In this document: one piece after another, positions 5,499 to 33,728 of the stretch
Layout of the letters: the number at the start of each line of letters is the position of its first letter
How positions within the stretch are numbered: position 1 is the first letter of the stretch
Assembly (NCBI GenBank): GCA_951406725.2
Contig: OX597833.1
Span: 67,456,001-67,520,000, forward strand
DNA: 64,000 nt
Origin: Octopus vulgaris
Taxonomy: Eukaryota
Direction of reading: 5' to 3'
Made by a program: the position numbers and the translations under genes
The notes under the pieces: generated by a model
What the model saw: the letters and a program-made list of their open reading frames with translations, nothing else
Told to the model about the DNA's origin: nothing
Database searches by the model: none

Positions 5499-5514
5499 TT
5501 ATATATATATATTT

Positions 5515-5740
5515 AGTGAGGGAAGAAATGGAGCTGAACGAAGATTTTACAAGATTCCTTTTTATTATTTTCTACACATGTTTCAAAGGCTGCAAATTCC
5601 CTAATTCGGATTGAATAAGGAGACCATTTTGCAGCTTTCCCTTCAGGAAAATCCAGGAACTTAAATCTCCAAACAAATGCGCAGCAAGCTTTTCGAACAA
5701 ACGCTCCCTATGAGCCCATGGTATGAATGGCACAAAACTG
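5515..5740 (-). mobile_element. HHR-bearing repeat homologous to 32263-32570; decayed HHR at 5568-5651
   Basis: Reverse complement ttttc-CTGAAGG-GAAAGCTGCAAA...TTTGCAGCCTTT-GAAA-CATGTGTA-gaaaa; shares gaagaaatggagctgaacg with the 32 kb copy. Confidence 0.65.
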
Positions 5741-5747
5741 TCTCTCA

Positions 5748-13590: not shown

Positions 13591-13807
13591 ATAAGCTGTT
13601 TGTATTTGTTTGATTTGTATCTTCTTGCTCTTTATGATATTTTGTTGTCAGAGAATTTCGTCTGTGTCCTTCCATTGATATATAACATAACACGACAAAT
13701 TCTTTCATCGTAAAGCTTTATGTTCCCTTTTGTTTGTCACTGTTTACCCCCTCTACAGATCCTATTTGAAAACTGAACAAATCTTAATCCTTTTTAGACA
13801 CATAACA

Positions 13808-14148
13808 ATGGAGTGTCGTATACTAACAAAAATAAGCGTTTCCCATACTTGCTTCTCATCACTTTCATTCAGGGCCCCAAACTTGCCAAAGCTGCGAAAA
13901 CTGCCAAAACCGTTCGAGATATTTGTGCTCCGTACAGAGGCGGCGTTTTTAGTCAAAGGACTGCACAGAAATTCTTTTTACGTTTCAAAAGTTTAAATTC
14001 AAAGCGTTTCGTTCAGCAACGACGTGGAGCCCAAATCGAGGCTTGATGAATTCTTTAAGTCAAGACTCGAGAATTTCTACCATGAAGGCATTGGCATGTT
14101 AGTAGCACATTGTAAAAAAGTCGAATAAGTCGAATATATTTTTGACTG
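13808..14148 (+). pseudogene. Internally deleted mariner transposase (N-terminal HTH joined to C-terminal tail)
   Basis: KNKRFPYLLLITFIQG..AAKT..VRDICAPY..QRTAQKFFLRFK followed by RLDEFFKSRLENFYHEGIGMLV. Confidence 0.8.
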
Positions 14149-32021: not shown

Positions 32022-32115
<94 letters not shown>

Positions 32116-32262
32116 AAATAGAAAGATGAATAATCTTGTAGTAGATTAATCAAAAGTTTAACCGATACCTTAGTAGCAAAAATCACAGCAGTAAAACAGC
32201 ACGGTTGGAGGTACAACCATATGGTGTTGCAACCGTGCGTTGGTGCGGATAATTGAAATTAG

Positions 32263-32570
32263 AACATTATTGGTGAATTGAAGAAATGGAGCTGAACGCA
32301 GATTGAACAGAAATCGTTTTATTTCATTCTACACGTGTTTCGCCATGGGCTCTTAGGAGCATAGTTCGATTTGTTTTTGCTCCGCCTCTGTTCTGTTTTT
32401 GTTTTTCCAACGGATTTCCTATTTTCTTCCTGAAGAGAAAGACACAATATGGTCCCATTATTCCATCGGATTTTGGTAATTTGTGCCTTTCGAAACACGT
32501 GTAGAATGAAATAAAACGATTTCTGTTCAATCTGCGTTCAGCTCCATTTCTTCAATTCACCAATAATGTT
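32263..32570 (+). mobile_element. Fold-back element with 80-bp perfect inverted arms containing an HHR
   Basis: 32263-32342 is the reverse complement of 32491-32570; right end abuts (TA)n. Confidence 0.85.
32420..32513 (+). ncRNA. Type I hammerhead ribozyme with canonical core
   Basis: tattttcttc-CTGAAGA-GAAAGaCACAA...TTGTGcCTTTC-GAAA-CACGTG-TA^-gaatgaaata; G10.1-C11.1 pair, palindromic helix III, 9 of 10 pairs in helix I. Confidence 0.8.
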
Positions 32571-32639
32571 ATATATATATATATATATAAACAGCGTTAA
32601 CTTTAACAGATTTCTTGAAGAGTAGAAAGAATAAAAAAC

Positions 32640-33728
32640 AAACCATCATAATGAGGAATGACGAATAATACACCTTCAGAATTTATGTATTAAAGCATTT
32701 TCTTCATAATTCCGACATGTGTTTCGGACACGTGTTTCTGCTGGATAAGTATCATCGTGTCTTTTCATATAATACTTTTGTGCATTTAAATCAATTATTT
32801 TAAGCCTCTTTCAGTACAAGTTCCAATCTATTATGCAACTTTATTCCAAGTGATCCCCATACGAGTGGGGGGGAAAACTCCGAATAAGTTTGTATAGGTT
32901 TGCCACTGCAATTGTTTTAATGTAATTGAACTGAATGCACACAACTATGGCATCGAAAGACACTAAGACACTTATCCAGCAGAAACACGTGTCGCAATGT
33001 CACCTAAAGAAAATGATTTGGATCTTTTCCTTTTGAACGGCAGATGTCAACACAATTTCTAGTCAACTAAACACTTTTAAACTTCGTAGACTGGTAGAAT
33101 GTGTCTATAAAACATCATGTTTTTCTTGGCTTTATTGCGAAAATTATATATGTAGTAACATATTTCGTTTGAAAATCCGAGCATTTCGGCAATTTTAACG
33201 AATCGATTACCTCCATTTAGGTAAACAACATTTGCTGCATCTAAAACTGAGACAACATCCTGTAACTAACCCTCACGCTCCCCCTAACCCTAACCCTAAG
33301 CCTAATTTTTTTTTTTAATTGTTAAATCAATTTAATTATTACGCGTGTAAAAAAAAACTAAAGCAATGGAAAATAATTTAAACAATTAACATACAAAATA
33401 ATTCTATAATTTTATACACACGCTTTCCGTACGTATACAGGATGTTGTCCCAGTTTTAGACGCAGAAAATGATGTTAGCTCAAAAGAGAGCATAGGATTG
33501 GTTAAAATTCGAAAAATTAAACTACGTTGAACAAACGAATTACAAATTTATCAAGAAAGCCAAGTGAAAATAATGTTTTCTTTTGACACATTCTACCAGT
33601 ATACGAAGTTTTAAAGTGTTTAGTTAACTAGAAATTGTGTTGAAAACTGCCGTTCAAAAGGAAAAGATCCAATGATTTAATAAATAGATTTTGAAGATCT
33701 ATTATTCTTCAGTCTTCATTATGTTGTG

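Follow-up and report, generated by a model that had tools for sequence, protein, structure and literature searches.

At positions 32113..32570 of the analysed 64,000-nucleotide stretch of Octopus vulgaris DNA (the window) lies a 458-bp head-to-head insertion of a retrotransposon, a Penelope-like element (PLE); the insertion as a whole has no strand assigned. It sits in a (TA)n tract of which 32046..32112 remain on the left and 32571..32589 on the right (neither with a strand), and up to 3 further bases at its left end are common with the repeat. The long arm (32113..32342, - strand) is the 3' end of the element, 5'-truncated at d229, which is C11.1 of a hammerhead motif; d numbers run upstream from the long 3' end of the element, with d1 at window position 32114. 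It alone carries the 'tail', an extension of ∼150 nt (32113..32262, - strand). The short arm (32337..32570, + strand) is the pLTR, running from d383 to d150, the short 3' end. Along the window d1-229 in antisense are followed by d383-150 in sense, and the arms overlap by 6 nt of microhomology, GTTTCG, at the inversion junction (32337..32342, no strand). As originally predicted, an 80-bp antisense arm (32263..32342, - strand) is perfectly complementary to 32491-32570 (80/80) and stops at the CGAAA box, at C32491. What had not been recognised is the extent of the feature: the antisense part continues for ∼150 nt to 32113, the whole lies within (TA)n, and the left copy of the inverted repeat does not reach the end of the insertion. 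The perfect 80-bp stem is simply the region common to both arms. Since both arms have 0 mismatches to a natural unit elsewhere in the genome (locus L031), the perfection of the stem reflects youth. The locus is ordinary transposon debris, a real and young PLE insertion.

Other repeats are present in the window. Three further imperfect inverted repeats (77-88%; 32727-32993, 33018-33672 and, nested, 33191-33509) stand beside the insertion; they are MITE-like and unrelated to the PLE. A second hammerhead PLE subfamily, ∼78% identical, is represented by a solo short arm in (TA)n at 5512-5745 (- strand). Mos1/mariner-type transposase remnants (PF17906, PF01359) occur at 1220-1866 and 13798-14043, and the segment 22000-24400, with 18% GC and long stop-free frames, is probably a simple-repeat array. 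A host-gene search over 146 of the 156 candidate ORFs of the window, which is weak for short exons, gave only the mariner remnants and no recognised host exon. Among the best 150 of 265 matches in an Rfam scan of the whole window there were only miRNA-family matches far below threshold, mostly in microsatellites.

The octopus genome (2.8 Gb) is microsatellite-rich. When 32114-32570 was used as query, each half of the insertion had many identical matches in this genome; a 26-mer from the arm has 1,439 exact genomic matches. The parent element was found as four tandem 3,624-bp units (G000:C1:119514151-119525406, loci L031 and L032) with an 899-aa ORF, which is intact in at least one unit and has a 5' frameshift in one. 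The intact ORF (L031:6161-8860, - strand) is present in three further copies (L058, L085 and L088). Its GLYRDD motif, its VYQ..YVG region and its alignment to ∼700-aa homologs point to a reverse transcriptase (RT) with a C-terminal GIY-YIG-like endonuclease, domain names that derive from motifs and from descriptions in PMC8557442. There are 411 homologs, one of them labelled Argonauta, while Pfam and PDB sequence searches with the ORF returned no informative match. The family has the hallmarks of EN+ PLEs, namely a single ORF with RT and C-terminal GIY-YIG endonuclease, tandem or partial-tandem units with an inverted 5'-truncated copy, and the optional tail at one end, here ∼150 nt long and on exactly one arm. 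Two fixed 3' ends lie ∼150 nt apart (L031:5276 and L031:5425), and both read TTCAC..ATAAT, a candidate initiation or cleavage signal that can pair with TA repeats. A non-LTR retrozyme, described as short non-coding repeats that run head to tail, each containing a hammerhead (10.64898/2026.07.22.740005), was rejected as an identity: the insertion is single and head-to-head, and the tandem units are 3.6-kb coding elements.

By its motifs the parent would be placed close to the Hydra clade. The ORF contains RIRWL (a variant of RWK), SDKT, CNLC and CPH and no CCHH, with DKT/DKS in 120/120 homologs, and the (TA)n flanks and the hammerhead are further marks of this clade. There is no cysteine pair between the GIY and YIG equivalents of the ORF. 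The long copies checked lack the CxCx5C linker, present in 106/120 homologs, in their ORF, and its place is taken by a ∼160-aa S/N/G-rich stretch that recalls the N-rich inserts of rotifer PLEs. As CxCx5C is missing, we use the label 'Hydra-like'; its loss is probably derived. The zinc-finger linker is credited with targeting insertion to (TA)n, yet this lineage retains that preference in its absence, and the linker-less ORF is a natural test of what directs insertion there.

A descriptor scan of the window gave two candidate hammerhead cores, one of which is the type I PLE motif at 32427..32506 (+ strand), with a predicted cut after 32503. The core elements that had been described are all in place: CTGAAGA (32430-36), a helix II with a G-C closing pair (32437-47/32481-91), GAAA (32492-32495), the palindrome ACACGTGT (32495-32502) and GTA (32501-32503). 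Helix I has 3 adjacent pairs (32427-29/32504-06), helix II is paired at 10 of 11 positions with one mismatch and encloses a 33-nt loop II, and helix III consists of 2 pairs with a palindromic loop; the type I elements (CUGANGA, GAAA, UH and helices I-III) are all found in this segment. The term 'canonical' fits the core but not the whole motif, given that the match to Rfam Hammerhead_1 (RF00163) scores 14.8 bits (E 0.88) where the gathering threshold is 34, both helix I and helix III are short, and the hammerhead fold of the isolated motif lies 3.5 kcal/mol above the MFE. In the Rfam alignment a 51-nt stretch occupies helix/loop II where the model has 10. A degenerate core pattern had 3,203 matches genome-wide versus 0 for the control. 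Among 22 distinct copies from across the subfamilies, three helix II pairs had changed on both sides and 94% of cells were paired (0/500 shuffles). Helices I and III do not vary, are in part dictated by the search pattern and are therefore uninformative in this respect. The match counts and the compensatory changes argue that the hammerhead is more than chance despite its sub-threshold Rfam score. We infer that it would be a passenger in this insertion, a predicted ribozyme selected in the parent element. Cleavage by it would probably need a protein or a dimer; the self-duplex of the palindromic loop is predicted at -12.3 kcal/mol.

The long hairpin formed by the insertion has a predicted energy of -169.5 kcal/mol (z = -20). 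In RNA read through from upstream, where the masking arm is transcribed before the hammerhead, forcing the hammerhead fold against the hairpin costs 35.7 kcal/mol, and the two folds are indeed mutually exclusive, as had been proposed. RNA begun at the element's own likely start site would lack the upstream arm altogether, and the opposite strand has no intact hammerhead core. As read-through RNA would be locked in the hairpin and RNA from the element's own start would be free of the arm, no bistable state arises either way. The idea of an RNA conformational switch, in the sense of two folds of comparable energy, was rejected on this gap, with the hairpin ahead by ∼36 kcal/mol and the masking arm made first. 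The hairpin is likely an insertion by-product that would lock the ribozyme off, not switch it. That the inverted arm is such a by-product we regard as very probable, and this part of the original prediction, together with the PLE origin, is supported by the parent element and by head-to-head truncated copies across the genome.

The locus is possibly a dsRNA source, and a stem would form if it were transcribed, but the same holds for hundreds of copies. This bears on whether the locus might be functional in its own right, as a switch or as a selected source of dsRNA or small RNAs. The perfect 80-bp stem would form in read-through RNA of either strand, and small RNAs do come from rotifer PLE copies according to PMC3846280. 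Selection on this locus nevertheless appears very improbable: the energy gap leaves no bistability, arms identical to the parent unit mean that perfection equals youth, the junctions of the hundreds of copies with such stems are variable, and no host exon was recognised among the ORFs scanned.

Two samples of the family were analyzed. Sample A comprised 61 of the 62 clusters that hold the first 100 of the 1,439 26-mer matches. Sample B comprised 190 insertions chosen by the long 3' end alone, picked in the order listed among 343 hits to three variants of the flank; the samples have 17 loci in common. Sample B was made up of 103 simple and 3 complex inverted insertions, 37 solo ones and 14 others, and a further 33 ran off the fetched stretch (16 inverted, 17 long arms). 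Solo or unresolved insertions thus made up 51/190, five of the solos having a flagged tiny short arm.

Inverted copies of this family obey a strict pairing rule. A long end was paired with a short end in 106/106 inverted copies of sample B with both ends resolved, with 0 long+long cases. The 61 loci of sample A gave 43 long+short, 0 long+long, 0 short+short, 15 one-orientation and 3 unresolved insertions, and the same long+short pairing was found in 8 inverted pairs of the diverged second subfamily. The 5' ends of the two arms are correlated (rho 0.67), lying within 15 nt of each other in 32/90 pairs (permutation mean 6.9) and, without the d370-390 zone, in 22/72 (versus 4.8). Microhomology of at least 2 nt was present at 44/65 insertion-free junctions versus ∼17% by chance, and inserted bases occurred at 38 other junctions. 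Across 70 insertions whose arms overlap, 148 deviations from the reference occurred in both arms and 63 in one arm. For 8 recurrent variants the arms of one insertion were discordant in 2 cases versus ∼116 expected for independent templates, an expectation qualified by the linkage of these variants.

Such concordance would also follow from one source locus being active at a time, from gene conversion or from one arm being copied off the other. An alternative is that the inversion, still a by-product of the same element, arose by fold-back self-priming, in which cDNA started from the tail end would snap back and copy itself and the endonuclease would resolve the hairpin at the short end. The strong enrichment of near-symmetric junctions (including exact symmetry in 4/90 pairs) and the variants common to the arms speak for this, and Arkhipova et al. 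2013 (PMC3846280) interpreted palindromic junctions of rotifer PLEs in this way. A copy of the long arm, on the other hand, cannot contain sequence that the long arm is without, and the short arm has such sequence in 77/117 pairs. In 27 of these the long arm ends at or before d160, so that the arms overlap barely or not; among the other 90 pairs the short arm reaches further 5' in 50 and the long arm in 36. The window copy itself is such a case (long arm to d229, short arm to d383), and large later deletions would be required. We therefore consider fold-back unlikely, though it is the most credible of the alternatives.

The original prediction suggested checking whether inversion junctions of other copies cluster at the same nucleotide. 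They do not: there is no peak at the CGAAA box in the 190 copies, an outcome that had been named as one of two observations speaking against the prediction, and the window junction (≤1 mismatch) occurs in only 3 copies genome-wide, itself included. The flanks of these three are unrelated and one has its long and short arms swapped, which indicates independent events at a good microhomology. The same count bears on whether the 458-bp unit spreads as a MITE or other non-autonomous hairpin element. Eleven other loci match most of a 457-bp query at 91-98%, but their junctions differ except in one. With a junction common to only 3 copies, one of them swapped, and a repeat that is not terminal on the left, this reading is largely refuted, and we give it hardly any probability at all.

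A further possibility is that the RT pauses at the folded hammerhead, at the base of helix II or at the cut site, which would make the CGAAA end a hotspot set by the ribozyme. A hotspot at d229-233 was apparent in the first 61 loci (4 ends versus 0.7 expected in the loci found only in sample A). It did not hold in sample B, which was blind to the junction, where hazard-corrected counts of 5' ends were 4 versus 3.5 expected at d229-233, 1 versus 0.7 at d229 alone and 7 versus 4.4 at the cut site (d214-219). A broader excess of ends in sample B over the 3' half of the hammerhead, at d205-240 (35 versus 23.9, p 0.02), was seen in an interval picked after looking at the data; pooling the samples gave 46 versus 28.8 there and 8 versus 4.0 (p 0.05) at d229-233. 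The window junction, moreover, is explained by the 6-nt match to the d383 end. The end of the arm at CGAAA is not special, and the counts lend no support to a hotspot at a single base. The RT may pause mildly near the ribozyme, but a ribozyme-set junction seems doubtful, slightly more so than fold-back.

What recurs among copies is the d383 end of the window insertion, not its d229 end. In sample B 13 5' ends fell at d384 versus 0.4 expected (18 versus 1.4 for d383-386), and beyond d384 the truncation rate was ∼3-fold lower. The short-arm end at d383 lies one base inside this pile-up. Position d384 is the A of CAGTTTCG, which is Inr-like, and the second subfamily has the same CAGTTT, with one arm that starts there. 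Judged from these two things, the pile-up and the resemblance to the Inr consensus, d384 is likely the transcript start. In Drosophila Penelope the promoter is internal, lacks a TATA box and contains an Inr (PMC2377424), and this makes the start-site reading reasonable, though unproven.

Taken together, we interpret the locus as truncated head-to-head 3' ends of a Hydra-like PLE in (TA)n, likely made by both target strands priming on one RNA, with a hairpin that would hold the hammerhead inactive (probability roughly 0.8). The strict long+short pairing, the shared arm variants, the correlated 5' ends and the d384 pile-up favour two-site priming on one RNA. The endonuclease would nick both strands of (TA)n; of the two target 3'-OH ends, one would then prime where the tail ends and the other where the tail starts on the same RNA, and both priming sites (TTCAC..ATAAT) could pair with TA repeats. 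In the window copy the inner cDNA would have reached the RNA 5' end (d383-384), the outer cDNA would have stopped at, or been trimmed back to, d229, and end-joining would have proceeded through GTTTCG. For arms that overlap, either strand displacement or copying of one RNA twice would be required, and the 36/90 pairs in which the long arm reaches further than the short count against the scheme. Twin priming on one RNA is, in our judgement, only slightly better than an even bet. For the family as a whole we would give about even odds to the fuller account, in which inverted insertions result from a pair of target-primed reactions sharing a single transcript. Each nicked strand of (TA)n would be assigned to one or other of two fixed sites separated by 150 nt; in many events only the 5' leader would be copied, with run-off where the transcript begins; (TA)n targeting persists without the linker; and the hundreds of young copies would preserve a base-resolution record of this.

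LINE-1 twin priming, in which priming on both target strands leads to an inversion with a microhomology join, resembles the scheme proposed here. Unlike in our family, the second site of L1 varies and its parts do not overlap, whereas here the site is fixed and the arms usually overlap. In green anole Poseidon, Frangieh et al. 2024 (PMC11167929) describe in vitro cutting and extension of both strands of an AT-rich target, two start sites bounding the tail, use of uncleaved RNA and a hammerhead that cuts only with protein. Here each insertion uses each site once, while in anole both sites serve both strands; Poseidon also belongs to a different clade, and its ORF starts inside the hammerhead. 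That study left the later insertion steps unvalidated, and how PLEs build inverted pLTRs and tails was named as open in PMC8557442. The family rules (long plus short end, same-template arms, correlated ends and one-base run-off) are sharp predictions for an assay with the 899-aa ORF, and the value lies in this family-level mechanistic pattern, not in the window locus.

The inverted partial terminal repeat that PLEs had been said to acquire on insertion agrees with the family seen here and with published inverted truncated copies and one-sided tails (PMC8557442, PMC3846280, PMC2377424). As in EN+ PLE insertions described in the Fig. 2 legend of Craig et al. 2021 (PMC8557442) and in Arkhipova et al. 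2013 (PMC3846280) and Schostak et al. 2008 (PMC2377424), there are tandem units, a head-to-head truncated copy, a tail at one end, a pLTR hammerhead and microhomology joins; unlike in those descriptions, the tail is ∼150 nt instead of 30-40 and the window copy is without any ORF sequence. With the Hydra clade as described in section 11 of PMC8557442 the family shares RW(K)-type and DKT motifs, the lack of CCHH, CxxC and CxH around a conserved E/N, the (TA)n target and the hammerhead, but the S/N/G-rich stretch replaces the CxCx5C linker, RIRWL stands for RWK, and the unit is 3.6 kb where this clade is generally <3 kb. The hammerhead resembles those of metazoan PLEs in Cervera and de la Pena 2014 (PMC4209133), being type I, with helix II long, helix I short and helix III reduced to 2 bp that close a palindromic loop; by comparison, loop II of the predicted motif measures 33 nt, and core position 9 is followed directly by helix II. 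The same source reports low activity for PLE hammerheads and opposite-strand pairs of them 100-700 bp apart, and recently active PLEs were noted in an octopus genome (PMC13282606). In the open-access texts covered we found no twin-priming account and no end counts for PLE inversions; file S1 of PMC8557442 may list this PLE family. Inverted pLTRs, tails and PLE hammerheads are already published; the long+short rule, the arm concordance and the 5'-end pile-up are counted here over hundreds of copies, and similar counts were not found in the texts covered.
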